Of a DNA stretch of 43,138 nucleotides, positions 6,501 to 41,400 are shown one piece after another. The position numbers and the translations under genes are program-made. The DNA is from Chrysochromulina tobinii (lineage: Eukaryota), in assembly GCA_001275005.1 (NCBI GenBank), contig JWZX01003176.1, forward strand, positions 1-43,138, written 5' to 3'. A model generated the notes under the pieces. The model did not search any database. It was not told where the DNA came from and was given only the letters and a program-made list of their open reading frames with translations. Within the stretch, counting starts at the first letter, position 1. Every line of letters begins with the position of its first letter.

Positions 6501-9500
6501 TCACGTCGGCCCGCGCCTCGATGAGCTTCTCAATCACGCCAGCGCTCTGCAGCGCACACGCGACGTGGAGCGAGCTCTGCCCCGTCTGGTGGCTCACAGA
6601 GTCGGGCGAGGCGCCCCGCGAGAGGAGGAGGTTGAAGGTGCTCATGTCGCCCGACGCGAGGGCGTCGACCAGCTCGGGCATCGCGATACGCGTCGGCTCG
6701 AGCTGCGAGTGCCAACGGGCGGCGCGTCGGCGGCGAGTGACCGACTGCACGAGCACGGCCGCCTGTGCCGCATCCATATTAGGGTTGGCCGTGCTCACGC
6801 CGCGCGCCCTTCGCGCCCACGAAAGCACCTGCAGCTGCACGTCCTCAAGATGGGCACGGGTGCTGACACGGGTGCTGACACGCTCCGCCATCTTGGCGCG
6901 CACGAGCTGCAGCGTCCTCTCCGTCGCGGCCCGCTCCTTGGAGCCGCTCAGTAGCGCGTTGAGCTGGGCACACGTGCGGGCAGGATCGAGCAGGCCGGTG
7001 CAGCGGAGCCGCTCGCCGCTGGTCGTGACGATGAGCAATCCGCCGTCGGCCACGTCCCTTGCATCGAGGCTCGAGCTGCGTGTGCCACCTTCGCCGCCGC
7101 CCCCTCTCGCTCCATCGGCCCCGAGGAGGACGGCCGCCACCTGCTCGAGCGGCAACGGGAAGGCGTCGAGGGCCATCCACGTGACCGTCGGCCCTGGAAA
7201 AGCGTCAGCGTTCGACACCCTTTCCTCTTCCGACTGCGACGGCGTGAGCGGCGGCGGGGACGATGAGTCCTCGCCCTCGTCCTCACCCACGGCCTCCCTT
7301 TTCGTCTTCCTCCTCGTCCTCTTCTTCTTCTCATCAGCAAGCACCAGGTCTCCGCTGATGAAGACGAGCCATGATTGTGACGCGCACAGCCACCCCCGAG
7401 AGCGCCTGATACGGCGCGGAGGGCGCGCCGCCAGAAGCGCCTTGTTGGCCGCGCTCGGTGAGAGCGGCGTCTTTTTCTTCGGTGTTCCACCCGCCGTCGT
7501 GGGCGACTGAGCCGCCGTCGTGGGCGACTGAGCCGCCGTCGTGGGCGACTGAGCCGCCGTCGTGGGCGACTGAGCCGCCGTCGTGGGCGCGGCATGGTGC
7601 AGGGTGCATCCGACCGAGAAGAGATGCGATTCTGACCGTGGGAGCCACGCGGTTGGCGAAGCCCGCGCCTTGCCGCCTGCAAGCGTCGCCAACTTGAAGT
7701 CGGGCGCGTGGGAGCCGATGCCCGTGACGGCGCTGGCCGTGCTCGCCATTTTGCCTACCGCGTCTCCCAAAGTTCCCACAGAGGACGCTGCCCTCTCGGT
7801 GAAGGAGCCTCCGCGGTCCATCACGCCGCTGATGGCGCTCCCCACCGACACCCCACCGAGGCTGATGGCGTTGTCGAAGACCTGGAGCGTCTTGAGGACC
7901 GCATCGCCCACACTCGCCTCCTTGACGGCCTTGAGCTCTCTGGTCGCTGTGGCGCACTGCACGCCGTGAGGGTCGCGCAGCATGAGCTCGAGGGTCGCCG
8001 GCTCACCCCGCTCCTTGAACGCGAGGGGCGAGTCGAGCGCGTAGTCCATCGTCTCTCCCGCGCCGAGCAGATCCCAGCGCTGGGTGCCCACCTGACGAAA
8101 CCCGAAGAGCATGAATGGCAATCAGAGGTCATCAGAGGCCATCAGAGGTCATCAGAGGTCATCAGTGGTCATGACCTGACGAAACCCGAGGAGCATGTTC
8201 AGCATGCAATCAGAGGCAATCAGAGGTCATCAGAGCTCATCACCTGACGAAACGCGAGGAGCATGTTCAGCATGCAATCAGAGGCAATCAGAGGTCATCA
8301 GAGGTCATCACCTGACGAAACGCGAGGAGCATGTTCGATTCGTTGGCGATGCGGAAGGGCAGGTGGCGGCTCAGGACATCCACATGCTCGGCCCGCGCCC
8401 CCGAAAAGTGGCCTTTGGGCTCGTCGAGGTAGAGCACCGTCTGCGCGCGCTCTTGGGTCACGTGGAGCACCAAGTAGCGCTCGATCGCATACGAAAGCTC
8501 CTCGTCGAGATTGGGACGAAACTTGAGCGTGAACGTGCCCATCTGGAAGGGCGAGAAGGCACAGCACCACTCGTGCTCGCGAGTAGCAAAGCGTACTTGC
8601 ATGAGCCGGCGGGCGTCGTAGTTCCGGAAGCGCAGCGCGCCCGTTTGGGCGCCCGGAGGGACCACGAGCTCAGCGCCAAAGGCATGCCGGCGGCCGAGCT
8701 CATTGCCTCGGTGCTTGGCCGGGGGCGCCTCCCGCCACCAAAGGGTCTCTGACGTGGCATTGTGCACCACGAAACGGTCGTGGACGTAGGTTACATTGCT
8801 CATGCCCACGGGCACGCTCGAGTCGCGCTCGACCGTGACGCTCACCTCGACCATCTCCCCATGGCCGACGGGCACCGAGAGGGGGGTCGACGAGCCGGTC
8901 ACGTTGATCGGGAAGGCGCCCGACTGCGAGCCGATCACGTCCGACTTGGCGTACGCGAGGCGTGCCTTGTCGCCGACCTTTTCGGTGGCGCCTTCGAAGG
9001 CCAGCGTGAAGTAATGGGGCAGCGCCGAGTGAGCGTCCGCGGTGGTGACCGGCTTCTTCGCGCTCGAGCCGTAGAGGGCGAGGGGCACCGACGACTTGTT
9101 GTACAGCCAGTGCGGCGCGAACAGGCGCAGCTCGCACTGGGCGCCGTGCGACTTGATCTCCACGAGTAGCGTGACGGAGAGGGCCGTGTTCCGGCCACCC
9201 ACGTGCAGCTGGAGCTGCGAGATCTGCTTGTGGCCCACCCGAGCCTTCTCGGGCAGGCAGACCTCGATCTCGCCGCGCAGAGGCTCGCCGTCCGCGCGCG
9301 GGAGCTGTGCGTACAGCTCGAGCGCCGTCCACGCGTGGAAGCTGTGGAAGCGGCGCGAGGCGCCGGCGCGGATGGTGAACTGCGCCGAGGGCAGAAGCGC
9401 GTCGATCGGGAGCGGAGGGTCGAGAAAGTCCTTGTTCAGATGGCCCATGAGGCTCTCGTCCACCTTGTGCCCGCTTCGGCCGCTCGGCCGCCTGGCGCGC

Positions 9501-12500
9501 TGCGTCAGACGAATCTCGACGGAGCTCGGCAAGAAGGAGGCAATGAGCAGCGGCGCGATCAGCGTGAGCTCCCTCGGCTGCCAGCCGGCGGCCGGGCTGC
9601 GACTCATGCGGATCGCGTGCGCGTGCAGCTCGCGCATCTTGGCGAGTGCCGTCTTGGCGGTGGAGGTTTCGTCACGGAACTCAAACGTCAGGCTGCCCCC
9701 GTTCTTGAGGCGCACGACCACCTCGGCACCCACGGTAGCGTCGAGCCCTTCTAAGAAGGACGATCTCAGCGCCTCGACCACCTCCTCGCCAGAGTCGGCC
9801 ATGGAGGAGGTGGGAAGCCCTCTGGTGAAGGAGGCAGCTCCCTCAGCCACCGCGGCGGCTCCACTTCTCTCGGCGATGGCAGTGCTGCTTTTGGCGGCCG
9901 CGCTCTTGGTTTGAGCAGCCGCGCTCGCAGCGCCCCGAGCCATCGCGGCGGCTCCACTTCTCTCGGCGATGGCAGTGCTGCTTTTGGCGGGCGCGCTCTT
10001 GGTTTGAGCAGCCGCGCTCGCAGCGCCCCGAGCCATCGCGGCGGCTCCACTTCTCTCGGCGATGGCAGTGCCAGCTTTGGCGACCGCGCTCTTGGCGGCC
10101 GTGGCGGCCGCTCCCAGACCAAGAGCGATCGAACGATCGATCACCTCGACAGCTGACCACGGGATGGCCTTCTCCATCGCTCCCGATTCGCCGGAGCCGA
10201 CGCACCGGACGCACAGGTATCCGGGCGTGAGGTACACACGGCCGCCCGTCGACCCATCCGAGTGGCCTAATCCGGTCAGACTCCGGAGATTGAGGCTCTT
10301 TTCGCCCGTGATCTGAATCTCGGAGATGCGCGACGAGCGGAAGGAGTCGATGCACGTCTCGGACGCGGGCAGCTGCAGCTCCGCGAGCTCACGCATCCGC
10401 TGCTTATTGATCGCGGTCGCGGCTGCTGTGGTGGGCAGCGGCTCCGCTTCCGCCTCCTCTTCCTCCTCCACCTCGTCCTCCTCTGACCGGAGGACGCGAA
10501 GAGATTCCCTTGAGCTCTGGACGATGCAGATCCATGGCAGCAGCAGATCCGTAGCGGCAGGGGCGGCGGCGGGGTCGGCAGCAGGGTCGGCAGCGCTCGG
10601 GGCAGCGCTCCCTAGCCCATGGCTCCTGAGCCACTCGCGCGTCGCCGCGTCGGCGGGGCTCACACTCTCTTCCAGACTCTCGAATTGATCTCGAGTCGGG
10701 CCGCAATAGAGGAGCGCCGTTCGATCGGTCCATATTAGGAGCTTGCCCGTGGGGGTGGCGGGGGCGGCAGACGTGCCCTGTCTGAGGCCGCTGGGCTTCT
10801 GAACGGAGGGTTTGGCGCCAATTGGGGGGGTGGCGCGGCGGGTAGAGGGGCTGGTCGAGGGGATGTACCCTCTGTCCGGATTCTGGAGCACGATGCCGTC
10901 GCCGTCGGGCACTCCGTCGGGCTCAAATCGCAAGCTCGCCATCGACCCTTCCGAGCCGAAGAGTGTGTACGCGAGAGGTAGCCATCGCTTCTCCTCACGT
11001 CGCACCACGACGGCACTTCCGGCGCCGAGGAGCATCTGGTCATAGCGCGCGTCCCAGTGCTTGCCGAGCGCCGTTGCGAGCGCGGCGCTCAGGTCGGTGC
11101 GGATCAGGACCGGGCTCGCAGTCTTATTCTTGATACTGAGGGTCGAGCGCGCGCTCACAGTACGGCACCCTCGGTCGTGTCTCACGTCGCACACCACGCC
11201 CAGCGTCATTTGGCGAGCCTTCATGGCCATCCCCACCGTCCTCGCAAAGTTGACGCGCTGCTCCCTGAGAAGAGACCACTTGCTCTTCGCAGGGCCGCCG
11301 CCGGCCGCGGCCGCCGCCGAAGGGGCCAGAAGTGAGGCCTCGGCAGCGGGGCAGGCTGTGGGAAGGGAGGCCTCGGCAGCGGGGCAGGCTGTGGGAAGTG
11401 AGGCCTCGGCAGCGGGGCAGGCTGTGGGAAGGGAGGCCTCGGCAGCGTCGGCAGCAGCGGCTACGAGGACGAGCGACGAGCCGAGACGGTGCAGCGGCAG
11501 CCGAGCGGGCGTGCAGAAGAGCGCGCCGCTCACCTCGTCCTCGAAGACGAACGTGACCGTCTCGAGCGCCGTCTCGAGCTCCTCGGCCGGCCTAGTCGAG
11601 CTCGCGGCTGCACCGGCTGCCGCGGATCGATGGATGAGCAAGCGCCGTCTCGAGCTGCTCAGGCTGCGCTTGCGGTGGAGCGCTACCGGTAACGCCTTGA
11701 GTGGACTCATGGCCCCCAACAGCCCACCCAAGCCCAAGGTCCGCTCGTGCTTGCCGATGGGCGAGGCTTTTGCGGACTTTTGGACCAAATTGGTGCATGA
11801 CGAGACGATGTGGCCGAGCCCGCCCAGCTTCCGGGTGACGAACCGGGTGACGCTGCGGGGGGTCGCGGCGGCCGCCTCGGCGGTGGGACGACGTGGTCTC
11901 GTCGGGGGGGTCGGGAGGTGCGTGGACCGATAGCCGACGAGCAGCCCTTCGAGCTCCGCGTGCCACACCTCGATCGTGGGCGAAACGGTCGGATCGCCGC
12001 GGTGGGAGTGCCCGTCATACTCGGCGGGATCGTCCGTGGCGGGAACCTCGAGCCAAATCTGCTCCTTGGAGATCGTGATCACGTGGAGCAGCGTCACGGC
12101 TCCGTCGCCCGAGGGCCGCGGGCGCCCGACGATCGCCACCTTGTGCAGGCTGCTGACGGGGAGGTGCTCGAGACGGCGCTCGAGACTCTTCGGGTGCAAT
12201 GTGAGCTGCGCGTCGGCAAAGCGGCAGAGGCCTTCGCGCGAGAGCAGTCCAAACCAGAGGCGTGGGTGAGTGAGCTCGGCGTCCCATTCGATCAGAAGCC
12301 CGCTGCACAGCGACGCGAGCAGCGACGCGTCGCGCAGCAGCGCATGCGCCGCCTCCACGTCCGCCGCCAGCTTTGAACGCTCCCTGCGCTGCTGCGCCGT
12401 CCGGCCGCCGCTCGGCGTCGTCGCGGGCAGCAGCTCGATCGGGAGCAGCCCGTCGCTGTCGACCAGCGTCGGGTCGGCACCCGCGTGGAGCAACAGCCCA

Positions 12501-15500
12501 ATGGCCTCGGGAAAGACGGCGCGACTCGCCAGATGCAGCGCCGTCTTGAGCGGTCCCTCCTCTGCGGAGCATGCGGGCAGCGCGTCGACGCTCGCACGTG
12601 CTGCAATGAGCAGCTCGGCACAGAGCAGAAACGGACGTCGCGAGCGGCTCTTCGAGACAATCGCTGCGCGGCACGCGTGCTGCAGCGCGGTGCCGTCCGG
12701 GCTGAACGAGTTCGGGTCTGCGCGCTCGCGCAGCAGCGACCGGACGTCTTGATCTTGACCCCTCGCCGCGGCGAGCACCAGGTCTGGGTCCGGGTAGTGC
12801 GTGGCCAGTGGCCATCGAGCGGCGCCGTCCTGGGTGTCGTCCTCATCCGAGCTCGAGGAGCGCAAGACACGAGCGGAGACGTCGTCGTCTGCCACGTATC
12901 CACTCCGATCGGAGCCGCCGCTCGGCTGCTGCACCGGGAGCGGAGGACGTGGATCGAGGGCATGCTTGCATGCAACCGCGAGCCTCTTGTGCGCCTCGGT
13001 CTTCCGATGCGCCTTGGCGAGCCAAGCGGCCGTCCGCCCATGGCAGTCCGCGGCGATCGGGTCGGCGCGGTGCTCGATCAGCAGCTCGATGATGCCGACG
13101 GAGCCCGAGACGGCGGCAAAGTGTAACGGCAGCATCCCATCGCTCGTAGGCTTGTTGACCTGCGCCTTGACGCGCAGCAGCATCTTGACGACTGCCTCGT
13201 GCTTGTACGCGGCCGCCACATGCAGCGCGCTATGATCGCCGTGCACGCCGCCCTTTTCCGAGTCTGGGTGCGCGCAGCGCCTGAGGAGCAGTTCCACCGT
13301 GGCGAGCTCGCCCTTTCGCGCCGCCGTGACGAGCATCGCGTTGAAAGTTGTGGTCGCGTGCTTGCTCGCGTGCTTCGCTCCGAGAGCACCCATGCGCTTT
13401 GCGCCGATCCACATGGCATACCCGCCCAACGGTTCGGCCACAAGCGACGTGAGCAAGTCCAGTCCCCTCGGGTCTCGAGTCCCTCGATGCGGCCAATGTG
13501 AGACCCTTCGACGCGAAGCCGGAGCTCGGTATAATTGAGCGCGGCCGCCGGCTCGTACACATTCTTGGTCTTCAATTGTGAGCCGACCACCTCGGTAGCG
13601 TGCACGATCTGGCGCATCGACTTGTATGAGTCCTCCTTGTCCCGTTGCCGGCGGCTGCGGCGCATCTCGTCGAGACGACTCTCGACCTGCTTGAGACGGC
13701 CCTCGTACTCGAGGCGCACCGAGCGCTTCTGCTCCTCGCTCTGGCCCGGCTGCTGCTCGGCGCTCTCCATCTCGAGCTTCGTCGAGTGGAGCTCTTGCAG
13801 CAGCGCGAGGATCCGGCGCGACATCTCGCTCGCCGTCGGCGCTTGGTCCGCCGTCTCCTGCACGCCGTGACCGAGCTTTGGAGTGGGAGGCGAGGAGGAG
13901 CCGCGGAGCCTTGGAGGCCGTGCGTCATCGGTTTGGGGTCCATCCTCAGGCTCGATCATGCGGAACTTGTCCTTGAGAGACGCCACGCGCGGCGCTGCCT
14001 CGAGCAGATCCTTGAGCAGAGCGTACGACACGTTGATCTCAATCGGGGAGCTCGCGCGAAGCATGAGCGCCGTCGTGGTAGTCGGCCCCGTCGCATGGTT
14101 GGCAAACGTGAGCCGGACAGCCGACGGCTCGAGGATCGGTTCCCATCGGGACAGGGCCATGTTGAAGTTGGACACTTGCATGCGCAGATCGAGCGCCACA
14201 TTGTCGAGCACGTTGTCGAGCACGTTGGCCGACTTGACGAGCACATCGGCCTGCGCGCGGAACCCATCGACAGCGACCTCGAGCAGCGGCAGGAAGGAGC
14301 CCCCTCCCCACAAGGCGGCGTCCGAGTCGTCGATGAGATGGACCCAGAGCCCACCCCAGCTGCTCACACGCACCTTGAGGTCCATGCTCGTCAGTTGCGA
14401 GCCCGGGTCCGCAAAGTCGGCCGCGGTGGCTGCCGCGGCCTTCTTGGCGGCGGCGAGTCGTGATGGCGACAGTCGCGATGGTGGCTGCGACGGCAGTGCG
14501 CCGTCGGCCCTTTGGGGCGGCAGCGCCGAGCGCATCGAGGCGACAGCTCTCTTGAGCGCATCCGAAGCGTCCCCATCGTCGACCATCCGCTCTTGGTTCG
14601 GCATTCGCGATGGCAGCTTGGGCGCCGGGTTGAGCGCCGCCTCCGCCACGGCCTCCGCAGAGCGCATTTGGCCCCAGCTTTGGCTCCAGCGCATGGCACG
14701 TTCGTGCTGCACCACAAGCTGCTGCTCCTTGGCGATCTCCTCCCCGATGATGGCGAGCAGCGCCAGATGGGAGAAGGCCAGGTTCAAGTGGAGCGCGCCA
14801 AGGCGCACGTCCACGCGCAGCACGATCGGGAGCACGGAGCCCAAGGGCGGGAGCGTCCTCTCGAGCACAAGATCCAATTGGAAGCGCTCGAGGGTGAACT
14901 TGTCGTTCGGAATCCGGCCCTGCTCTCTCGTGCCGCCGAGCGCCTCCCCGTCGTTGTCAACCACCCTCCATCGCTCGTTGAGACGGTCGTCGATGAGCAC
15001 TTCGACATGCTTGAGGCGCAGCCGCAGCCTGTCGCACCATCCGAGGTTCGTCAACTTCGGGCGTGCGCCAGGGCCCAAGTCGAGCAGTTTCGTCAGATCG
15101 GTGCATGCTTGCAGCTGCCCGAGGCGTACCACCAGACCTCCGCGCGGGTCGCTTGGGCGTGGCAACACGAGCACAGGCAACTCGAAACAGAGGCACAGCG
15201 CCACCAGAGGGAGGGTGCGCAGGGCATCCGTCGGGTCGCCTGCGGCAGCGGCGGGCTTCGTACCGGTACCGCCGCCGCCGCCACCGCCGGCAGCGGCTGG
15301 CTCGGGCGCCTCGGCTGCTGCCTCCGCGGGCGGCGGCGCATGCGCTGCCACCGCGGTGCCGAGTCGTGCAATCGCGGCGCCAATCGACGCGAGCTCGCGC
15401 GCATGCAGATTCACCTGCAGGGGCTTGAGAGCGCATGCAAGACTCAGGGCATACTCAGGCATGGTGCACGCCGCGCTGCCCTGGGCACCGCCTGCTGCTA

Positions 15501-15907
15501 CCGCCGGCGCCGCCTTCGGCTTCAGGGAGCGTAGCCGGAGGACCAGCACTTGCATGCCAAGGCACTTCGCCGCCGTCCGATCGCCCCCCCCACCCGCCGC
15601 CGTCCGATCGCCCCCCCCACCACACGCCACCTCGGTACTTCCGATGCCGAGGTTGCGCAGCACGGCTTGCTTGGGTCGGTGGCGCGCCTCGGCGGCGTCG
15701 ATCGGCCCAGCCGCGCGGAATTCATCCAAGACGCGCGCCGCCGTCGCGAGCGCTCCCGAAGAGACGCCCGCGGCGGCGCCGCCAGCGCTAGAAGGAATCC
15801 AGCCACCAGCGTGAGAAGGTGCCTCGGCGGCGCTCAGTGCGCTGCGAGCGCAGGGCATGGTACGGAGGAGTTCGCGCGCTTCGGAGCCGCCGCCTCCAGC
15901 GCCTCCA

Positions 15908-15941
<34 letters not shown>

Positions 15942-18900
15942 TCTCAGCGCGTGCGTAGGCATGGATGCCTCCTATCGTGAGCCGCACGTCCTGTGCGCCC
16001 AGCTCGAGCAAGGCACGGGCCTCGATGGCCGCGATACTTGCAACGAGCAGCGCGCCCGCCGACGCCGTGTCGGGCGCGTGGGGCCAACCAAAAGGAGTCG
16101 TAGCGTGAAGCAGGACTGCCAGCCTCTCGAGCTGCGCGCGCACGAGCATCTTCGGCTTGGCGGGAGCCGCGGCAGATTCGACTCGCGGCGATGAACTTGC
16201 TTCCGAACCCTCATGCACATCTGCATACTCGTCCAAGGCGAAGCTTTCGACATTTGGGCTTCTGACTCTAGCAGCAGCTTCGACTCGCGGCGAGGAACTG
16301 GCTTCTGAACCCTCATGCACATCTGTAAACTCGTCCAGGGCGTTCGCTGATTGAACACTGCCGAGGCTGCTGTTGACGCTGCTGTCGACGCTGCAGTTGT
16401 CGCAGCCAGCCGCCGTATTGCTAGGCGACGATGACTCGGCAGCGGCGGCGGCGGCGGCGGTGGCGGCGGCGGTGGCGAGAGCGGATCGCTCCGATGCGAG
16501 GCTCTCTCCGAGCGTCTTCGCTAGCATCACCGACATGATGGCTCCTTTGAGGCGGCGATCGGGCACGGGCGCTTGCGAGTCGACGACGCTCTTGACGATA
16601 CTTGATGAGATCTGGCTGATCTCAGCCATGCCCGCCAGCGCCGGTGCAATCGCCGCTGCAAACTGAGTCAGCCCGCTGAGTGGCCGTGCGAGGGCGGAGG
16701 TGTCAACGTGCACGCGCACCGGCCGAATCGCGACGTCCACACACGTGGCGGCTGCAGCCGCGTCGAAGGCCGGCGAGCCGGCTTGTACAAGATCGAGCTG
16801 CACCACGAGCAGCGAGGTGGCGTCGACAAGCGCCGCTTCCTCGTTGAGGTGCGCGTCGAGATGGGCGCTCGCCGATGCGTCGAGCTGCTCGAGGTCGGCA
16901 GGCAGCCTGCCGCCGTCGAGGAGGGGGATGAGACCAGCGCGCGAGCCGTCTCGGGCGGCCGTTGGACGAGCGGACGCTTCCCATCGGGTGCGCCGGCCCT
17001 GGGCGCCGTCTCGGGCGCCGTCTCGACGTGCCGAGGAGGGGGAAGCGGGCGGAGGTGGCGTCACAAGAGTAGTAGGCCCGAGGTCGATGGAGAGGCCTTC
17101 GAGCCGCATGGCAAGCCGCAGATCCAACGGACGCATGTGCATGCGCGTCCGAAGCTCGTGTAGGCGCAGGCAGAGCAACGACTGTGGTGCGGCCGGCCGC
17201 AGCTGCGGCTGCTTAGATGCCGATGAGGACAAGAGGGTTGGTGGGGCGTGCACCACTGTCACTGTGAGCTTGCACAGCCGGAGCGAGACCGCCATCTGTT
17301 CACGCTCGATTGCGTCGCGCACGACGGTCCCACCCGCCTGCTTCGTCGCCTCCTCGAAAAACGTTCGGAGCTTCTGCTCGGCGAGCAGATCGCTGCGCTT
17401 GCGCCTCGGCGGCTGCTTGGCCGCGCAGGCGGCGGCCCATTTGTTGGCTTCGGATCGCGTCTCGACGAACACCTGGACGGTGCACGAGGCGAGATGGCGA
17501 GGCAGGCGGGACGCGTGCATCGCGAAGCTCAAGCTCCGACCGTTCCCCCCCATCTCGGGATTGTCGAAGTCGTCGAGGCACAGCTCATACGACTCGCCCG
17601 TGCTCGTGGCGTAGGTGAAGCCGCGGTTACGAAGCACTGCCCACGAGCGACCATGCTCGAGGACCATCTCCTTGCCATACTGCGCGCCGGTGCCAGCGAC
17701 GCTCTCCTTGAGCCGCGAGCTTCGGACTACGCCCAGTACCCAGCCGGAGCGGCCACCGCTTTTGGATGCCGAAGCCACGAGCGTGTTGATCGTGAGCAGG
17801 AGCATCGATAGGTTGCCGTAGAGCCCGCTCAGCTCGAGGACCGTCGCGTCAGAGACGCTCAGGCTGATCGCACGCACCAGGACGGACACGTCCACACGCG
17901 GTACCTCGGGCGGCACCTCGACGAGCGGCACGCCAACGGCGATTTGGACTGACGTCACCTCCACCAGCCATCCCTGGGGTGGTGACGTCGGCGAGGGAGG
18001 GGACGTCGGCGGGGGTGGTGACGTCGGCGGGCTCGATCGCCAGGGATGGTTCTGGAGAGGCTCCGCGTCCAGATCAAAAGAAGGATGCAGCCACGCGGCC
18101 GCGAGGGAGGTGGGCGGCAGGATCCCCATGCGCGCCGCCTCGAGCGCGACGCGTAGCACGAGGCGCGGCTTGTCGGTGGGCAGCCCGACGCTTTGCGCAT
18201 CGACCGTGCAGACGCTCAGCGGTCCGACGCGGACCAGCACGATGCGACGCACGCTGCACGCAGGCTGAACGCTGGGGCGTCGCTCTTTGTTGAGGTGGCG
18301 CTGACGTGAGGTGGCGCTGACGTCGCCCTTTGCTGTGGCGGCGCCCTTGGCGGAGGAGAGGTTTGGGAGTGTCGCTGGCTCCACTTCACGGTCGTCTTCA
18401 TCGGCGCGCGCGTGCACACGGCCTTCAGCGGCGCGCGCGTGAATGAGGCGGGGGAAGAGCGCCGAACGCATCGCATGGAACTCGTCGACCGTGAGCGACG
18501 GCTCGACGAGGGCAAATTGCAACGTGCCCACACGAACGTCAATGTCAGTCGCCAACGCCTTGGACTGCATGGCAGCGAGTTGCGCACGCATGGCAGGGCC
18601 GATGGCATCGAGCACGTGGTCGGCGAGCTGCGCCCCGCGCGCCTTGAGCGCTGCTTCGAGCGCCGACTCTTTCCGGCGCGTCGAGTTGTCCGTACTCGGT
18701 CGTATCGAGGCAAAGTGGAGCAGCGGCGGCAGGATGTGGGGATCAAGGAGGACGCGTGGGCCGGCGACGCGAAGGCGCACGCCCAGCGCGACGCCAGAGG
18801 CCGACAGCGTGTCTACCTGCAGCTCGATCGCGGCATTGGTGTCAGCCGGCGTCGAGATCCCATCTCGCGGCGTCGAGGTCACATCTCGTCTCGTCGAGAT

Positions 18901-20991
18901 CCCATCTCGCTGCCGGCGGCGCATCTCGTCACCATCTCCCATCGAGCTCCCATCTTGCTGCCGGCGGCGCATCTCGTCACCATCTCCCATCGAGAAGATG
19001 GTGCGCAGGTACTCGTCGCGCTTGGCTTTGAGGTTCGTCAACTCGATCGCCATCACGCGCGCGTAGAGGGATATCGAGCCGGCGCCTCCGAGGAGGATGG
19101 CGGCCCGCACCGACGCCTGTCCGACTTGGAAATCGAGCCACGCCGAGTCATCGCGCTCGCTGTGGATCTTGACGTGGAAGGAGGGCATCGAGAAGGTCAC
19201 CACGAGCTCCTCGGTATTCACCGCCTCCTTGCCGGCCATCGACGCCACCATCGCCGCGTGCACCGCTGCCTTGGCCACGCCCGCCTCCTCGGCCGCCCGC
19301 TTCGTACTCTGGTCGAGCTCATACTGGAGCTCCTCGAGCTCGCCGGGCGTCACGACGGCCGCATGGGCCGCATCCGTGTGCGTTGGTCCACCACCGAAGA
19401 GGCCCTTGAAGAGCCCCGCCGGCTGGAAGGCGGCTGCGAGCCGCCGAAAGGCGACGATCTCTTCAAAGAGCATCCCATCCGCCTCGAGCGCCTCGAGATG
19501 CTTGACCGACTCCGAGCCAGCCTTCGCACCTCGAGCCGCGACGTAGGCCTCGAGGTACGCAGCGCGCCGCTCGCGCCGCTGCCTATGGTTGCGCCAGCCG
19601 AGCTTGAGCTTGCCCTTGCGCCTCACCTCGAGCAGCGCGCACCGGCCCACAAACTGCCACCACTCGCGTGGGGCCGTCGAGGCGGCGACCGAGCTCGGGC
19701 GGCGCGCTTCGGCATAGTGGTTACGCCGCTCCTTGAGGTCGAGTGCCTCGAGCACAGCCATCAGGAGCACAAACTGGCCGTGGCGCACGCACAAGCCGTT
19801 GCCGTGGACGCTCACCGCTACGGCGCCATCGCTCAGCCCCAAGCCTGCCAAGCCCAGGTCGAACACCACCTTCAGGTCAAGCGGTGTGAGGATGTGGGCC
19901 GGCCCCTCGGGGGCGTCGATCAGGGGCTGCATCAGCCGTCTCCAATAGCTCCCAGCTGCATTCGCCTCGAGCGCACTCGCATATTCCTCGTCATCCCAAA
20001 CGTCCAAATTTGGAACAGGCTCCTCGCCCACGCTGCCGCTGCCCGCGCCGCCCGCGACCGAGCTGCCGCCGCCCGCGCCGCCCGCGCCGCCCGCGCCGCC
20101 TCTGCCTCTCCCTCCCTCACCCCGGGGACTCAGCCACGCCTCGCGCTCAGAGGTGAGATCGGCACGGGAGCCGAGGTAGATGCCCAGCCCTTGGAGCTCG
20201 AGCGTCTTGCACACGCGTGCCTTGGCGCGCGGGTGCTGTGCGACACCACCCGTGCCGCTCTTGCCGCCGCCCGTGCCCACCACGGCGTCCAGCGTGTTGA
20301 TGAAGGCGAGGCGGCGCAGCACCACGCCCAGAGCGAGCGGCATGGGGTCATCCTTCACCTCCTCTTGCAGGCGCACGTGCACGTTGGTGAGCACGAACTC
20401 GATTCGGTGGGCCACCGACGAGATGATCTTGTCGATGAGGCCCTCACCCTTTTTCCCGCCGCCCGCCGCCTGCCGCTGGTCCTCGACAGCCTGCCAAGCC
20501 GCGACGCGCGCACGCAGCGCTGCCGCCGCGCGCTTCGCCGCCATCTCGGGCTCATAGGTCTCGGGCTGGGCGAAGCCGCGCAGCACGAAGTAGACACGGT
20601 CGATCTTCACGGTGATGGGCTGGCTCATGAGATCGTGCCACGGCACATGCAGCTCAATGCTGCCAATGAAGCCTCCCGCGAGCTCGCACGGCAAGCCGTC
20701 AGCGAGCCCTTCCGCGTCCGGCCTCAGGAACAGATCGCTAAAGGTGGCGCCGTCGATGCCTATTCTCGCAAAGCCGATCCGAAAGAAGGCCTCCAGCTGC
20801 TTCTTGACCATGTCCGTGATGGCGCGGCCCACCCAGGAGAACGCGCCACCAAAGACGGAAGAAGGCGCTGCTGCGTGCTGCTTGTCTGAAGGCGCTGCCG
20901 CTTCGGCGTCGGCGGCGCGCGCTGGCGACGGGCTCGCTCCCGAAAACCTTTCGCCAGTCATCTGACTCCATGACTCTCGGATCCAGTCCAT
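3514..20991 (-). CDS. VPS13: giant VPS13-family (chorein) bridge-like lipid transfer protein, ~5,750 aa, with inserted ankyrin, PH/GRAM-like and IQ-like modules; intron 8092-8311; apparent frameshift near 13465
   Basis: Chorein-N-like GFIGSIELHVPWHDLMSQPITVKIDRVY and EWWQF; NFNMALSRWEPILEP; VAB-like APHWLYNKSSVPL and PFRIANES; C-terminal LQIDTPIESADFPVLL and ELYLKRVKIDQVRLSIT; ATG_C-like GVKGFVYGL. Three consecutive long minus-strand ORFs (13078-20991, 8288-13456, 3514-8121) are joined by one intron and one frame change. Confidence 0.85.
7491..7589 (-). repeat. coding 21-nt tandem repeat (PTTAAQS), about 4.7 copies
   Basis: CCGCCGTCGTGGGCGACTGAG repeated perfectly within VPS13. Confidence 0.95.
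8092..8311 (-). other. 220-nt phase-0 intron of VPS13 made of three serial GT...CAG units
   Basis: Sense strand TTTCGTCAG|GTGATG...TTTCGTCAG|GTGGGC; removal joins AFRQ to VGTQ in frame. Confidence 0.9.
9851..10070 (-). repeat. coding 93-nt tandem repeat, about 2.4 copies
   Basis: GCTCCACTTCTCTCGGCGATGGCAGTG recurs at 9858, 9951 and 10044; 31-aa unit AIAERSGAAAMARGAASAAAQTKSAPAKSST. Confidence 0.92.
11333..11446 (-). repeat. coding 33-nt tandem repeat (AAEASLPTACP), about 3.4 copies
   Basis: GAGGCCTCGGCAGCGGGGCAGGCTGTGGGAAG recurs with period 33. Confidence 0.92.
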
Positions 20992-21562
20992 ATCGGCCGG
21001 CCGTGTTCGGGACTATCACGACGCCCTCGTGGAGGAACATGTTTCCATTTTTAATCAAGTTCATTTTTAGACAGCCGAAACACTCTCACACACATAAGTC
21101 AAGCTTGCGCTACAAACGTCGCGCCGGCCCGCCGAAAGGAATCATGTGAAGATCCGTCCCGGCGGGCCCTGGCACGCGAGAGCAGCATGTATGTACAAGC
21201 TCAGCAATGAAGCTCAGCTTCAAGCTCATTCCGTTATCCGTTTCCTCAAGAAGGCTTTCCCCTGGGCCTTTTCCGATTGCCCTTCCTCTGGGCTATCAGT
21301 ATCCCCCTATGACTGGTTCCATGAATGGACACCGTCCCATGTGATCGACACACCTGTGTCAAGTTGAGTTCACAGGAGCGACGCGTAACTTTGGGCGTCA
21401 CGCGGCAATCAGGACTTCAGGAGCATTACCTTGTATGGAATCAGGAGGCCAGGCGCTCGGATGTTCAGCCGAAGACTGGCGCCCCACACCGACACGCGTC
21501 CTTGCTTGCGTCCGCTCCAATTCACGCAATCTCGACAGCCGAGATCACTTCCGTCTCGTGAG

Positions 21563-24871: not shown

Positions 24872-25413
24872 ATGGCTCCGCTGAGCTTCTGGGGATGCGT
24901 CGTCAAGCCTGGCAAGACGCCGACAACACTCAAACGCGCGCAGGAGTTTGCCTCCGTCATTATCAAACAGGTGCGCTTGCCACCACCACCGCCGCTGCGG
25001 CCGCGCCCGTGTGACGGAGCACAAAGAGTCGCGCGCGCGCACCTCAATCGAAAAGTGTTATCGTGGCGGCGCCCCTAACTCTCCTTTCTGCGTGCATCGC
25101 GATTTTGCTGCAGGCCGCACTCGCTCCCGAGGGCAAGCCCGAGGGCACGAGCGTCCTCTCCGTGTCGGTGGGCGCCACGTCGGAGGACAAGTTCGTGCTG
25201 TGCCACCTGACGCCGGGCAGCTGCGACCAGTGGGCGCTGGACGTGGGCTTCGCGCCCGAGGACGGTGAGGTTACCTTCCACCTCACAGGCAAGACCGCCG
25301 TCCACCTCACTGGCTTCCACGAGATGGACGACGACGACGAGGACGACGACGACGAGGACATGGACGAGGAGGCAATGAAGCAGCTGGAGGAGGAGGAGGG
25401 CGAAGAGGAGGAT

Positions 25414-25471
<58 letters not shown>

Positions 25472-26454
25472 CAGCCCCCGCGCCGGCCAAGGGCAAGGGC
25501 GCGCCAGTCAAGGCGGCGGCGCCGGCACCGGCCAAGGCGGCGCCGGCCCCGGCACCAGCCACGGGCAAGGCAGCGCCGGCCCCGGCACCAGCCAAGGGCA
25601 AGGCAGCGCCGGCACCAGCACCAGCCACGGGCAAGGCAGCGCCGGCGCCAGTGCCGGTCAAGGCGGCGGCGGTCAAGGCGGCGGCGGGCAAGGCGGCGAC
25701 GGCGCTTCCGAAGGGTGGTGTGGAGGACGATGAGGACGATGAGGACGATGATCTTGATGACGGCGAGGACGAGGAGGATGACCCTGACGATGAAGACGAT
25801 GAGGACGATGAGGACGATGAGGACGATGAGGACGATGATGACTTTGACGACGCGGAGGTCGTGGACCAGAAGCGTTCGTTGCTCTTCGAGGGAGTCGACA
25901 TGAAGGACCTTCAGGGCGACGACGACGACGACGACGACGAGGACGACGACGAGGACGAGGACGGCGAGGAGGACGAGGAGGATGAGGACGACGAGGGCGA
26001 GGAGGAGGACGACGAGCTCGACGACGACGAGTTCGATGACGAGGACGAGGAGGAGGATGAGCCCGCACCTCCGCCCAAGGGCGGCAAGCGCCCTGCGCCG
26101 GCCGCCGCTGCCGCCCCGCCGCCGGCCAAGAAGGCCAAGGGCATGCCCACCCCGCCGCCGGCCAAGGCGCCGCCGGCCGCACCTGCGAAGGGCGCAACGC
26201 CCAAGGCGGCAACGCCCGCGGCGAAAGCGGCGACGCCCGCAGCTGGCAAGGCGGCGACGCCCGCGGCTTCGCCCGCCGCGACGCCCGCAGCGGGCGCGCA
26301 GGCGTGGAGTGCTAAGGAAGAAAAGGCCCTCGCGGACTCGCTCGCCAAGCTCAAGGAGGGCACTCCGAATCGATGGGAGCGTGTGGCGCAGGACGTGGGC
26401 GGCGGCAAGACCCCGAGTGCGTGCAAGAAGCATGCCAAGGAGATGAAGAAGTGA
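24872..26454 (+). CDS. nucleoplasmin-like (NPL) domain protein with acidic tracts, Lys/Ala/Pro-rich linkers and a C-terminal SANT/Myb domain; exons 24872-24970 and 25114-26454
   Basis: SFWGCVVKPG...KQAAL...FVLCHL...VTFHLTGKTAVHLTGF resembles the NPL fold of HD2 and FKBP39-type proteins; long D/E runs; WSAKEEKAL...NRWERVAQDVGGGKTPSAC is SANT-like; phase-0 intron CAG|GTGCGC...CTGCAG|. Confidence 0.85.
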
Positions 26455-28886: not shown

Positions 28887-31494
28887 ATGGCTTTCGGCGT
28901 GATATGCTCGTGCTGCGGCGAGAAGGGCGAGGTGGAGGACGCTGCCGCGGCGGCCTCCTTCATGTGCCAACCTTGCGAACAAGATCCCAACACGGCGAAA
29001 CCCGACATGTCGGTGTACACCATACCCGCCGAAACGGGAGTCGTCATGCTCGAGGCAGCGAAGGCGTTTGCCACTCTGACGCCAAAGGAGCAGGCGTACG
29101 CACACGCGCTCGCCAAGGCAGATTGGGACGGCGCCAAGATCTGCCTACTTCAGTGCAGCCCTGAATCGCCCTACATATTTGCGCTCCTCATGCTCGTCTT
29201 TTCCGCGCAGCCGGTGGAAGCGCTCGTCTCAATGTCGTCGGCCAAGGGGCTGAGCGATGAAGAGGTTTGCCAAGCGCTCATGTACTGCGCGGCCTTTTTC
29301 GGCAACATGGGCAACTACAAGTCCTTCGGCGACACCAAGTTTGTCCCGTCGCTCGCCGCCGACAAAATGCTCGCCTTTCTGTCCGCCGGCGCGGCGGATG
29401 GTGCCAAGGTAGATCGGCTTTGGCGACGCTGCGTCGTGCGGATGTACTCGCTGCCGCCGCGGCAGCGGCAGCTCGGGCTCGGCCGCGCGAACGGCATCTC
29501 GACATACTTTTCTGCTAACTGCGAGGCCGCTGACGCCGATCTCGCTGGCCGCTTCCTTACTTCGATCGGCCTCTCACCATACAATACGAGGCTCTTCAAG
29601 GGCGACGATGGGTACACCGTGCTTCTCGCGTCAGCGGAGGAGCAGGCGGCCGTTGCGGGCATCCTCGCGGAGGCCCGCAGTGCCGGTCTAGATGCGAGCA
29701 AGGCTGTGCCCGCCTGGCTGGCCAACCTCGACCTCCCGGCATCCATGGCCGCGGCGTTTGGGGCGGTGGCCGTTGACATCAGTGATGGCGAAGCGGCGGG
29801 CGCGGGGGCGGGCGAGGCGGAGGCACGGGCGCTGGACGGCCTGTGCCGCGCTCACTCCTTCGAGGGGCACACGATCCGCGTGCGCCGCGGCGACTACGCT
29901 CCAATTATGGCTCGTGTGGTGGGCTGGCTCGAGGCAGCGATCCCCCACGCGGCAGACCAGACGCAGGCGGCGATGCTCGAAGCGTACGCGACGTCGTTCC
30001 GTGAAGGCTCGATCGAGGCCCACAAGCGTGGATCCCGCCACTGGATCCGTGACAAGGGCCCCGCGGTCGAGAGCTACATCGGCTTCATCGAGTCCTATCG
30101 CGACCCGAGCGGCTCTCGCGGGGAGTGGGAGGGCTTCGTCGCCTGCGTCAATCGCGAGGTGAGCCGCACGAGCTCACCTGATGGCGTCTGGTGGCGTCTG
30201 GTGGCGTCTGATGGCCTCTGATGGCGTCTGATGGCGTCTGGTGGCGTCTGGTGGCGTCTGATGGACTCTGATGGCGTCTGATGGCGTCTGATGGCGTCTG
30301 ATGGCGTCTGGTTGCCTCTGATCGCAGGTGAGCCGCAAGTTCCAAACTCTCGTCGACGGCGCTGAGGAGATGCTCAAGCTCATGCCCTGGCCCCGCGCCT
30401 TCGAGAAGGACCAGTTCCTGCGGCCGGACTTCACGTCGCTCGAGGTGCTCAGCTTCGGCTCGTCGGGCGTCCCAGCCGGCATCAATATCCCCAATTATGA
30501 TGACATTCGGCAGTCCGAGGGCTTCAAGAACGTGAGCCTTGGCAACGTGCTCCAGGCCTCGTACGGCGCGGGCGAGAAGCCCGTCTCCTTCGTGGCCGAG
30601 GCCGACCAAGCGCTCTTCAAAGCTCTCAAGGGCGAAGCCTTCGAGGTGCAGGTGGGAATCCATGAGCTTCTGGGGCACGGATCTGGCAAGCTCTACCACG
30701 CCAACACGGCCGACGCCGCCACGCTCCACGGCACGCCGCACCCGCTTACGGGCGAGCCTATCTCGGGCCCCTTTTATGCGGCGGGCGCTACGTGGGACTC
30801 GACCTTCGGACGGCTCGCGTCGGCCTATGAGGAATGCCGCGCCGAGTGCGCGGGCATCTACCTGTGCTTGGAGCCAAGCGTGCTGACCATCTTTGGGCAT
30901 GCGGATGCGCCCGCGAGCGAGGTGGCGCAGGTGCACGACATCACGTACATCAACTGGCTCCTCATGGTACGTGCAGGTCTCACCGGTCTCGAGTTCTACA
31001 CGCCGGAGACCCGCGAGTGGCGCCAGGCGCACATGCGTGCCCGTTTCGCCATCCTACGAGTGCTGCTGGAGGCGGGCGAGGGGCTCGTCACACTCACGCG
31101 CACGACGGGTGCCGACGGGAGGCCAGACGTAACCGCGACCATCGAGCGCGCGCTCATCAAGACGGTTGGCAAGGAAGCCATCCGCAAGTTCCTTCTCGCG
31201 CTCCAGGTGCATAAATCGCTCGGTGACCTTGCCGGCGGCACCGCCTTGTTCGAAAAGTACTCGCTCGTGAGCGACGAGCTCATGGCCATCCGCACGATCG
31301 TGATGGCTCGCAAGGAGCCACGCAAGCTTCTCGTACAGCCCGTGCTCACTGCGGCGCTGGATGGCTCGATTGGCATCAAGCAGTTCGAGCCGACGCCCGC
31401 GGGCATGATCGAGTCGTTCGTCGCGCGCTTCCCCGCAGAGGATGACGCGCTGCTCGCCCTCGCCGACAAGGACCAGCCGCACGTGCTCGACTGA
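28887..31494 (+). CDS. DPP3: dipeptidyl peptidase III (peptidase M49), 812 aa; exons 28887-30158 and 30328-31494
   Basis: Diagnostic HELLGH and EECRAE zinc motifs, plus NMGNYKSFGDTKFVP, GFIESYRDP, PAGINIPNYDDIRQSEGFKNVSLGNV and QAHMRAR; phase-0 intron 30159-30327. Confidence 0.96.
30159..30327 (+). other. DPP3 intron composed of a (GGCGTCTG[A/G]T)-type decamer array
   Basis: GAG|GTGAGC...ATCGCAG|GTGAGC; about 14 decamers; removal restores VNRE-VSRKFQ. Confidence 0.92.
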
Positions 31495-37309: not shown

Positions 37310-39419
37310 ATGATGGCGATGGTCACGCTCGGGATCGCCGCGTTGAATTGGCAACCAATGAAGGCACATGTGGCCTTTCCACCCATGGAGGTGCAGCACG
37401 CGCTCGTCGCCCGTTCCCCATTCGCAATCATGCTCGACAGCGAGGCCGAGGAGATGGAGGAGTGGAAAGTCATGCAGCGCACGTGTGTCACGGAAGGCCT
37501 CGACCTCAAGCTATTGGTCTCTGCTCTGCCTTGCCTCCCTTGCCTCCCAAACTGATCTGGACTCGTGCCGTGAATCGACATACGCGCACACAGGCTCGAT
37601 ATGGCGCAACTGCGGTTGGAACAATGGGGCCGTGGTGGCGGTGGGTCGCCATCGCAGTGGTCAGGCGGCCAATCGGTCGCGAGCTTGCTCGATGGCACAG
37701 CCTCGACGCTCGCCTTGGGCAAGCAGCGCCTGCAGGCCAAGGTCCAGCGAGAGCGTTTGCAAGCGGAGGAGGCATTGAGGCGGGCGGCGATGGCGGAGGC
37801 GGCGCTGGCTGCAGCGAGCGAGAGTCAGCAGCGTGCGGAGTGGCAGGCGGCGGCCGTGCTCTCCAAGGTGCGGTACGCCGAGGAGGAGCTGGAGCGAGCC
37901 GTGCAAACTACCACCTCCGCATCCACGCGCGCTGCGCGTGCCGAGGCCGCGGCGCTTCGATGCGGCGGCGGTCGTAGAGCGCGTCGAGGAGCTCGCACGT
38001 ATGGCGGCTAATAAAGCGATCCAGCAAGAGCAGCTGGCGACCGAGGCGACCGTGCGGGCGTCCGAGGCGAGCGCTGCCGCGGCCGCTGAAGCGCAGAAGG
38101 CGGCCGACGCGCGGGCGGAGAAGGAGAGAGCGGTGGCGGCGGCGGAGGCGGAGACGGCGGCGGCGCGCTTGGCGAGGCAGGCTGAGGCAGAACGTGCAGC
38201 CCGCGCAGAGGCGGCAGCGGCGAGCACGGCGCAGAAGCTGAACACGACGGCGCGCGAGCTCGCGGAGGTGCGTGCCGAGCTCAGCGAGGGGCGCGAGTTT
38301 GCGGCCGCTCGAGTGAGTGACCTCGACGATGCACTCGAGCGGGCTCAAGATCGGCTCGCACGCACGCAGAGGGACTTGGAGGCTCAGGCGAAGGCGACGA
38401 GCGAGGTCGAGAAGGCGGCCGCACGGGAGGCGGCCGCGGCGGCCGCAGCGCAGGCGGCTGCTGCCGCGGCGGCCAAAGAGGCGGCCGAGGCACGAATGAT
38501 CGCCGAGGGCGAGGCTGCCGCGGCGGCTCAAGCGAGGGCTGAAAAGGAGCAGGCGGTGGCGGCGGCGCAAGCGGAGGCGATGATCGCTGTTGCGCGGCAG
38601 CGGCAAGTGGAGACGCTCGTGGCGACGGCCCAGGAGTCGGCTCAGTGGGCGCGGGCTGAGCTGGCTACGGCCATGGCGGCGCGCGACGAGGCCTCTTCTC
38701 GAGCCCGCGAGGCGACCGCACGCGCGACGACAGCGGAGGTGGCAGCCAAGCGTGCTGTGCGGGAGAAGCGCACCGCGGTCGCGTTGGTGCAAGCAGAGCG
38801 TCAGCTCGCGCTCGAGGCGAGGGACGAGGCAACGGCGCGTGCGGAGCAGGCCGCGACACGCGCGGCGATGGCCGACGAAGCCGCGCGCCGTGCCGAGCAT
38901 GACAAGGAGGCTGCCGTGCAGGCAGCCAGGCTACAAGCGGCGGGCGCCGAGCGGCACGCGAACGCGGCCGCGCAGCAGAGCACAGTCGCCATCGAGCGCG
39001 CCACAGTCGCCGAGGCGCGCGCTCAGCAGGCGGAGGCACAGAACAGCGCACTCGGCGCGGCACTCGATTGCGCCCTCATCGAGCTCGATGAGCTTACCGG
39101 CCAGTGTGCGGCGCTCCACCGACGCGCCGCGGCCCTGAGCACTGAGCTGCGCCGCATCCAGACGCGCCACGCCGATGGCGCCGCCCCGAACGCAGGCACG
39201 AGTGGCGGCAGCGGCAGCATGGGCAGCATGGCCGGCGTTGTGAAGCCCACCAATGCCGTGATGGCGACGGGAGCGTCCTTCGGCAGCATGGGCAACACGG
39301 CCACTGCTCTCTCGGCGCACGAGCGCGAGGCCCAGGCAAAGGCCGAGTGGCTCGCCAAGCTCGACCGGCCGCTCGCTCCCAGGCTTGATGTGAAGCTGGT
39401 CAACTCGCTGCGGCGGTGA
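37310..39419 (+). CDS. Ala/Glu/Arg-rich long coiled-coil protein with a probable targeting leader; probable intron ending at 37593; apparent frameshift near 37955
   Basis: Three consecutive coding-like frames (37310-~37516, 37594-~37954, ~37956-39419). The acceptor ACACAG at 37593 is plausible but the donor is unresolved: the obvious GT at 37517 gives the wrong phase. Confidence 0.6.
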
Positions 39420-39698
39420 GGCGAGGGGTCAAGGAGGGGGATCGTGGTTGGGTGCGTTGTCGGCGGGTTGTCACATGTTTCGGTGCGTTGACCGTTGTCT
39501 GGCGGCGTTGTCTGCGTTGACTGTGTCGTAGACTTGTACGTTGTGGGAAGAGGGGGTACAGAGAAGCGAGAGCAGCGAGCTTGGGGGGCAGGGGGCGCGG
39601 CAAAAGCGCGACCGCGCGACCCGCGCATCAAAAGGCGCCATGACGGGCGGATTCATCGACGTGGTGACCCCCGACACGCGAAGTCGGCGCGGGCGGCA

Positions 39699-40823
39699 AT
39701 GGCGATGCACATGCAGAGCTTCCTCAACACGGAGACGGAGCTGGGCGGGCGCAGCGACTTGCCCGATGAGGTCTTATTGGCGCTGACGGCCGGTGGCTGG
39801 CCAGCGATCCGCTCGTCGACCAAGCTCGACACGCAGCAGCAGCAGCAGCATGAGGTCTTTGTGCTCGAGTTCAGCAAGGAGGCACCGGCGGCGCTCGCGC
39901 CGTGCGGGCCGCACGGCAGCGACCGCTCCTCGGCCAAGCTGATCATCATCGGTACGGAGCTCGGACGCTCGCCCATCTTTGCGGTCGACGCGCCCACGTC
40001 CGCGGCGACCATCGAGCGCACGCTCGCACTCGCATTGGCCGCGGGCGCTGCCGTGCCCAAGGTGTGGATGCGCGGCGAGATAGCCAAGCGTGGCGCACTC
40101 CGCCGCCTCTCGTACGTCCTTCTCGAGAACTTGCCCGCCGCCGCCGCCGCGTCCGGCCTGTCACTCCCGCTTCCCGTCACCGTGGGTCCGAAAGCAGTGG
40201 CGGGCATCGCGTGGTACGATGACGCACCGAGCTTGCTGCGTGAGATGAGGCGGCTGGCTATCGAGGCGGGCGCGATGGAACTGGACGCTCCGCTCGCCAA
40301 GCTCGAGGCCCACTGCACCGACGCGTGTGGCGCGCCCACACAGCGCTGCATCCTCTTTGACGTCGGTGGCACGTCCGAGGCAGAGGTTACGCCCGAAGCC
40401 ACACCCGCAGAGCCGCCGCCGCCGCCGCCGCCGCCGCTCGACACGACGCTCTTCTGGGCGGGCGCGGCCGTATGTGATGCGCGGGTGCTCCATGCGCCCG
40501 GCGCGCCCTGGGAGCTCGTCCGCGCCGCATGCCACGTCGTCAAGGCACGCTGGCTCATCGACCTGTGCCGGCGCGAGCCCGGTACGGCGCCGCGCTGCGA
40601 GGTTCGCGCCCTACTGAGCGCGCACGACGGTGCGCAGAAGCTTCTCGTCGAGCCTCCGTGCCCCCCTGCATGCAAGTGCTCACCCTGGCGCCCTCGCCCC
40701 CCCACAGGTGCGCAGAAGCTCCTCGTCGAGCGCGGCTGGCTACCGGCCACGGCCATCTCCAAGGGCAGCTCGTGCGCCATGCTCGCCCAGACCTTCCCGG
40801 AAGAGATGTGCCCGTGCTACTGA
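39699..40823 (+). CDS. hypothetical protein with an APH/choline-kinase-like N-lobe; probable 78-nt intron 40630-40707
   Basis: LALAAGAAVPKVW...YVLLENLP resembles the aminoglycoside phosphotransferase N-lobe; duplicated GAQKLLVE flanks a GT-AG segment. Confidence 0.6.
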   Translation: MAMHMQSFLNTETELGGRSDLPDEVLLALTAGGWPAIRSSTKLDTQQQQQHEVFVLEFSKEAPAALAPCGPHGSDRSSAKLIIIGTELGRSPIFAVDAPTSAATIERTLALALAAGAAVPKVWMRGEIAKRGALRRLSYVLLENLPAAAAASGLSLPLPVTVGPKAVAGIAWYDDAPSLLREMRRLAIEAGAMELDAPLAKLEAHCTDACGAPTQRCILFDVGGTSEAEVTPEATPAEPPPPPPPPLDTTLFWAGAAVCDARVLHAPGAPWELVRAACHVVKARWLIDLCRREPGTAPRCEVRALLSAHDGAQKLLVEPPCPPACKCSPWRPRPPTGAQKLLVERGWLPATAISKGSSCAMLAQTFPEEMCPCY

Positions 40824-41400
40824 GCGCGTGGTCCCGTGAGCGCGATCGCGTTGGCCTTGGCGAGGTGCACTGCGCGCCACTACTGTGCGCTCGCCGTGGC
40901 GCTCGCCCGGGGAGTTGGGGAGGGGAGATGTGTTTTTTCCCGATCACTCTCTGCGAGTACGGTTTGCGCGCCTGCGTCTCCGAACAGATGCCGAACCGGC
41001 CCCGTGCGCGTCGTCGTGGCGCGTGGTCTCTGGTCTCGTCCCCGCAGCTCGGGGGCCCGGCACCCCGCCGCACGCGCGGCTCGCGGGACCTGAAAACGCG
41101 GCGGGCCGACGGCGACGCCCGCGGGCACCCGCGGTGCGCGGAGGTCGAGGTGGGGAATCATCGCGTTCCGCGTGGTATGTGTCCACGGACATGTGTGTCT
41201 GTCGTGCAAATTGTGAACCGCTCTCTGTGTACAAACTCGCACCGAGTCCCTCTTGCGAGCGTGCGTCACACGCGCCGGTCCGCCCGCCTCCTCGCCTTTA
41301 TCCTTTGTGTCGCCTCACTGTGGTGACACCTCCGCGCTCATCCTCAAGCGCCCGCGTTGGCTCAGCCAGCCGGGCGACGATCAAATCAGGCAGGCCGCAA

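Follow-up and report, generated by a model that had tools for sequence, protein, structure and literature searches.

A spliced 78-nt intron of Chrysochromulina belongs to a large family probably built from long target duplications and intron-derived filler

Introduction

The window analysed here, the whole 43,138-nt stretch of Chrysochromulina tobinii DNA, contains a 78-nt spliceosomal intron from a large family that probably arose through long duplications of the target and fillers derived from introns. The likely route to such an intron is the entry of a piece of some other intron, in many cases a close neighbour, into a staggered DNA break. The origin of new spliceosomal introns is a long-standing question. 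Known intron bursts are mostly due to transposons with short, fixed duplications, and intron gain by break repair is represented, in the cited sections of PMC3443670, by few cases with fillers of unknown origin. About a hundred of the Chrysochromulina sites sampled here retain the target scar together with a filler that can be traced, and several are polymorphic among close relatives; with a cultured alga at hand, these properties make the mechanism directly testable. One end of each copy is unique, so that introner pipelines needing similarity at both ends would miss this class, and gene callers read such introns as spurious peptides.

Results

Anatomy and splicing of the 78-nt intron

The host gene (39699..40823, + strand) encodes 348 aa after splicing. 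Its first exon (39699..40629, 931 nt, with the start codon inferred from relatives) and its second (40708..40823, encoding the conserved C-terminus) flank a GT..AG intron at 40630..40707, which lies in phase 1 within a Gly codon and begins with GTGCGC. The donor is supplied by the first copy of a 25-nt direct repeat (40629-40653), the second copy of which (40707-40731) forms, from 40708 onward, the start of exon 2 and is retained in the mRNA. The two copies are offset by 78 nt and agree at 24 of 25 positions, the sole mismatch being T40643 versus C40721, and the repeat itself makes up a third of the intron. Its score in the host gene, 21, was reached by none of 200 codon shuffles (maximum 14). 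Between the copies lie a 5' filler segment (40654..40666), a near-identical version of which also stands upstream of the core in locus L086, then the family core (40667..40686), with a branch-like CTCAC at 40679-40683 whose motif suggests use as a branch point, and finally a C-rich tract ending in the CAG acceptor (40687..40707), which the filler brings with it.

The first-pass annotation had described most of this anatomy, and its description holds: the repeat and its T/C difference recur at the same coordinates, the CTCAC motif, the C-rich tract and the terminal CACAG are all present within 40630-40707, the GTGCGC donor is common to the intron before the NPL-domain gene (24971), and ORF 39492-40823 reads through the segment, a multiple of three in length, without a stop.

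Of 20 runs listed, contigs from three RNA runs (X14, X12 and X11) and one DNA run (X9) were compared across 39400-41300; the lake runs X17-X20, in which none of the sequence words sought occurs, were left out. An exact 78-nt skip with GT..AG ends (cut +1) was found in contigs of X14 and X12, two of the three RNA runs; X11 has no contig spanning the intron and is hence uninformative, and the one DNA run has no 78-nt joint. The predicted junction of 40629 with 40708 is thus seen in RNA, which runs counter to the constant retention that the first-pass annotation had named as part of a refutation. In X14 the spliced form is the single contig spanning the site. The joined form fits both repeat copies for 14 letters only, so that the C of the second copy is kept, as a GT..AG splice predicts. 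The segment 40630-40707 is confirmed as a real spliced intron, cut out at GT..AG as U2-type spliceosomal introns are.

The segment might instead be read as a coding insertion of 26 aa, with the RNA joint an artefact of reverse transcriptase switching templates between the repeats. It is indeed stop-free and a multiple of three, a 25-nt direct repeat can promote template switching, and contigs cannot measure intron retention. We consider this reading extremely improbable, however, since the joint falls in the very 14-letter zone that holds the GT..AG cut, X14 offers one spanning contig, six alleles of relatives are frame-shifted, and sister introns whose lengths are not multiples of three are spliced, one of them with only 6 shared letters. 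Run X14 comes from a strain with a few base differences, and five clustered differences in its 3' UTR (window 40931-40944) are probably a strain allele.

The host protein

No Pfam family matched the host protein. A structure was predicted for the insert-free, empty-site relative P0020 rather than for the intron-bearing protein, and this model suggests an APH/choline-kinase-like fold: the best Foldseek E value was 1.3e-3, the APH/choline-kinase matches were consistent though weak, and comparison with structures of this type gave Z scores up to 10.5 with rmsd of 5-7 and identity of at most 14% (for VIA, Z 10.5, rmsd 6.0 and 225 aligned). For the adjoining ubiquitin-conjugating gene, a C. parva model falls into the same cluster at 90%.

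Presence and absence among relatives

Presence or absence of the intron was read at the protein level. In a distant set of 24 relatives, 12 representatives of which are 39-65% identical, 22 read through without an insert and the other two are uninformative, one ending early and one breaking a few codons later. Orthologous proteins therefore do not carry the insert in the manner that would contradict an intron. In the distant relative P0010 the frame breaks a few codons past the insertion site, perhaps at an independent intron nearby.

The near set comprises 33 relatives listed out of 49 members in four clusters, with P0017 (19% coverage) excluded from the allele counts. Among the 33 are 7 empty alleles, 18 with an in-frame insert, 6 with a frame-shifting insert, 1 with a doubled unit and 1 truncated. 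Alignment with orthologues, which the first-pass annotation had advised, thus reveals an intron polymorphic among near relatives, and because 6 of the 33 alleles are frame-shifted the length divisible by three is incidental. The empty allele is probably genomic: the longest contig with P0020 has 37,618 bases, and the maximum for a relative of the neighbouring gene is identical. The youth claimed for the intron agrees with the 24/25 repeat and with the 7 empty-site relatives among the 33 near ones listed, and sequence comparison supports an intron that is both young and polymorphic.

The direction of change may be read in more than one way. Empty alleles keep the Ala and Glu seen in most outgroups and all informative intron alleles have Thr and Gln, so that the empty alleles are not nested among the intron alleles. 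The empty alleles also share a His with the first copy of 6 intron alleles, the exon copy and most outgroups having Arg or Lys. A single gain with a parallel change, or a gain followed by deletion between the repeats, would both fit, and the shared His is as compatible with precise loss as with gain.

An intron family with one geometry

Within the window the core has a single match at up to 3 mismatches. Summed contig depth is 7402-9332 over the filler versus about 44 beside it, a figure that is not a copy number. A search for the filler in other introns, as the first-pass annotation had suggested, uncovered a high-copy Chrysochromulina intron family, with at least 136 loci in metagenome contigs scanned for an 18-mer of the filler. 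Filler sequence is common to many introns in unrelated genes, as in introners under the definition of Gozashti 2022.

Sites were ascertained by the core motif, and the counts that follow, all among the sites listed, derive from ungapped matching in several strains; tandem units account for some of them, a few sites are misclassified, and at least one locus enters the counts twice. A flanking direct repeat (score of at least 14) was found at 99 of 138 distinct exact-core sites, versus 6 of 600 mismatched pairs; direct repeats thus flank the insertions above background, as in break repair. With a degenerate core, 222 sites divide into 135 with their own acceptor only, 31 with their own donor and 56 with neither signal. 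Among the acceptor-only sites listed, 89 of 135 open with a copy of the downstream exon (null 9/2000), and it is this locus-specific 5' copy that removes the similarity near both splice boundaries expected of introners; the copies are 10-45 nt long (median 26), and 80 of the 89 start with GT (73) or GC (7). The mirror form is found at 19 of the 31 own-donor sites listed, which end in a copy of the upstream exon (null 27/2000), 17 of them in AG. Even where neither splice signal is present, 35 of the 56 listed insertions lie between duplicated copies. The copies are 95% identical overall, and 33 of the 89 listed are perfect. All three forms fit one geometry of target, filler and target.

Both filler ends vary, with 0-81 nt before the core and, in the mirror form, 0-24 nt after it, and inspection by eye of the listed sites revealed no evident terminal inverted repeats. 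Viral contigs contain no exact copy of the core, and five mirror-form loci gave no Rfam matches. A genome paper on C. parva may mention these repeats.

A conventional introner of the DNA-transposon type, non-autonomous and moved by a DDE transposase, would account for the many copies of one sequence and, as in Symbiodinium and Polarella, for a target duplication that contributes a splice site. We regard this as very improbable, because the duplications span 10-45 nt (median 26) rather than a fixed 3-9, both ends vary, and the listed sites show no evident terminal inverted repeats. Replitrons were considered on account of the variable duplications, and the terminal repeats described for them in the cited part of PMC10288648 were not seen here.

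The same geometry is found elsewhere in the window with other fillers. An intron candidate of 169 nt in a peptidase M49 gene (30159-30327, + strand) opens with about 11 nt copied from the exon downstream, and its filler is a 10-nt satellite. A 220-nt candidate in the VPS13 gene (8092-8311, - strand) contains three copies of the 22-nt end of the upstream exon with satellite units between them, a tandem expansion of the mirror form; it ends in the upstream-exon copy, which bears out the view that it is the mirror image of the 78-nt intron. Locus L042 shows this geometry around satellite filler too, so that the process extends beyond introns with this core.

Other features of the window were recorded in passing. 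The VPS13-like gene (3517-21012, - strand) has ankyrin repeats on either side of its VAB domain, the introns of an ABC1-kinase gene (1161-1430 and 1846-2013) contain 10-12-nt satellites with branch-like TGAT motifs in the units, and ORF 25015-26451 (+ strand) has long acidic tracts as well as a nucleoplasmin-like domain and, at its C-terminus, a Myb-like domain.

Sister introns and tandem arrays

A DHX37-like helicase gene in locus L013 (1800-3050) has four predicted family introns of 77, 71, 133 and 79 nt, none a multiple of three and three of them opening with an exon copy. RNA runs show the removal of all four at canonical ends; of the 4 runs, between 2 and 4 support each skip. Five DHX37-like relatives, 87-99% identical, differ in possession of two of these introns, adding to the protein-level presence and absence seen at the 78-nt site; the relatives are genomic because they read into other family introns. 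In the same locus, at about 4300-4390, the core has been inserted in antisense orientation. This 69-nt insertion has a 19-nt duplication and keeps the frame of a disordered coding region, and introns of that gene lying 1.5 kb away match the flank of the insertion.

Tandem arrays of a unit comprising the 3' half of an intron and the start of an exon occur in L036, L048, L134 and P0035, resulting in back-to-back introns with no exon between, which are candidates for recursive splicing. In L042, one intron appears to be a complete GT-to-AG copy of a second intron in that gene, and no long duplication accompanies it. An alignment of 15 locus pairs for DNA-level empty sites returned only tandem-unit and satellite differences.

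A different history would be aborted intron loss, in which repair of an older intron from spliced mRNA or cDNA crosses the exon junction by 10-45 nt and rejoins inside the intron, replacing one intron end with an exon copy. Such a process would yield both mirror forms with exact junctions and need no selection, the first copy directly follows an older intron end at 6 of the 89 listed sites, and at 103 of the 135 listed acceptor-type sites GT is next. It is nonetheless improbable in our judgement. An unmodified, unduplicated intron was found at the position in none of the 33 near relatives listed and none of the 24 distant ones, a DHX37-like relative that is 99% identical is without one of the introns outright, and antisense copies, signal-less in-frame insertions and fillers bearing the exon copy of another locus are left unexplained.

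Discussion

The source of the filler

Several observations point to other introns, often close by, as the source of the filler. In a comparison confined to culture-series contigs (five overlaps 99.8-100% identical), fillers on the same contig were more alike than under shuffled labels (0 of 5000 permutations), and the best match of a filler lay on its own contig in 19 of 75 cases versus 2.9 expected. Locus L101 contains an intron of the L059 type from GT to AG together with L059's own exon copy, L067 carries the duplicated target of L073, and one of the L042 introns contains an exon copy that belongs to a different intron, about 2 kb distant. Among insertions that lack splice signals of their own, 21 of 35 are multiples of three in length (12 of 17 once tandem cases are set aside, one locus being counted twice); the spliced form gives 34 of 89 (Fisher p 0.044 for 21 of 35 against 34 of 89). 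Signal-less insertions are mostly in frame and one is antisense, from which we infer that the process need not make an intron and that the survivors are those that can be spliced or stay in frame. Microhomology at the inner junction is weak, a point against the route proposed below though too slight to decide between mechanisms, with none in 8 of 18 cases and the four longest matches being tandem units.

We propose a route in which a staggered DNA break in an exon is repaired with duplication of about 25 bases of the target. Repair would switch template to the DNA of another intron, often 1-2 kb away, and the 3' half of another family intron would be copied between the two target copies in one step, short AG/GT matches setting the filler end at a splice site. 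In the donor-from-exon form the duplicated exon would give the GT and the filler the branch site and AG, and in the mirror form the filler would give the GT and the duplicated exon the AG. Selection would keep the insertions that splice out cleanly or stay in frame, and each new intron could serve in turn as template for a further one. Small tandem duplications are known products of breaks that have complementary 3' overhangs, according to the cited part of PMC8355091.

The part of this route shared by the DNA and RNA versions, an insertion that duplicates its target and brings in filler of intron origin, is probably right. Its DNA version, repair of a staggered break with a template switch to intron DNA, we hold to be evenly poised between right and wrong; its basis is the comparison of sequences. 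One end of the filler coincides exactly with a splice site, and in the donor-recipient pairs that were traced only sequence internal to introns is carried over; both facts fit an RNA template as well.

An RNA template is a strong rival precisely because one filler end is always on a splice site, although we judge it on balance unlikely. Excised intron RNA, whole or trimmed, would be reverse-transcribed into a staggered nick near its origin, the enzyme being of LINE or Penelope type or else a repair polymerase, a process that would yield long variable duplications and truncated fillers. Fillers end exactly on source splice sites, at AG in the donor-from-exon form and at GT in the mirror form, and the GT-to-AG intron within L101 is what such copying would leave. 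The variable-length target duplication is also a mark of retro-insertion, and LINEs and Penelope-like elements have variable duplications and short 5'-truncated inserts (in the cited part of PMC9977147). The 3' end, however, is fixed at AG in one form and variable in the others, so that no one 3' end holds across forms; no poly(A) or microsatellite tail was found, nor a longer parent element extending beyond the consensus ends, and the tandem units that span intron-exon junctions in L036 and L048 show DNA-level duplication to be common.

More broadly, and tentatively, introns as DNA or excised RNA may patch nearby staggered breaks, forming a transposase-free, self-propagating intron factory in Chrysochromulina. 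The long target duplication would both supply the missing splice site and allow clean removal, so that mass gain and loss of introns might be reversible.

Comparison with known systems

No description of this family was found in the openly accessible papers searched. In the sections cited, the C. tobin genome paper mentions introns once (PMC4580454), the introner supplement has C. tobinii only in the input table among the entries listed (PMC9860276), and a Penelope paper (PMC8557442) yielded no mention of haptophytes or TSDs.

Tandem genomic duplication, as modelled in the cited sections of PMC3443670, resembles the present case in that an exon is duplicated and the GT comes from the duplicate; there, both sites come from a duplicated AGGT with no foreign filler, whereas here the filler brings the acceptor and branch site. 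The break-repair gains of the same source have direct repeats read as filled staggered breaks, with presence and absence among close relatives as here; their repeats are short and their fillers are not described, in those sections, as a repeated family, whereas those here come from other introns. Same-gene duplications in fungi and the near-identical introns of Oikopleura likewise give a single gene several related introns, but the fungal duplications are few (at most 16 per species) and are not described with long target duplications in the cited part of PMC3609843. Insertions of 5'-truncated LINE and Penelope-like elements likewise combine short inserts with variable target duplications; as presented in the excerpts of PMC9977147, they have a fixed element 3' end and an autonomous parent, neither of which was seen among the sites listed here.

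The closest parallels are introners. Those of Symbiodinium (PMC9860276 Fig. 2B) are multi-copy, take the donor from the first target copy and leave the mRNA unchanged, as here, and Polarella classes 4/5 and 6/8/10 (bioRxiv 10.1101/2020.10.14.339549) similarly carry the 3' site and recruit the 5' site from the duplication. As far as the cited parts of these sources go, both have fixed duplications of 4 or 8 nt and defined ends, with inverted repeats in Symbiodinium, in contrast to the variable duplications of 10-45 nt, the variable ends, the two mirror forms in one family and the tendency towards local donors found here. Introners of a marine Chrysochromulina sp. (PMC9860276 Fig. 2C), compared by the description given there and not by sequence, share the genus label, have no inverted repeats, include an example of 70 bp and, like the mirror form here, take one of their splice sites from the target, but have a 4-bp duplication. 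Splice-site recruitment from a duplication is therefore already known; what sets this family apart from these introners is the lack of fixed ends together with a long and variable target duplication.
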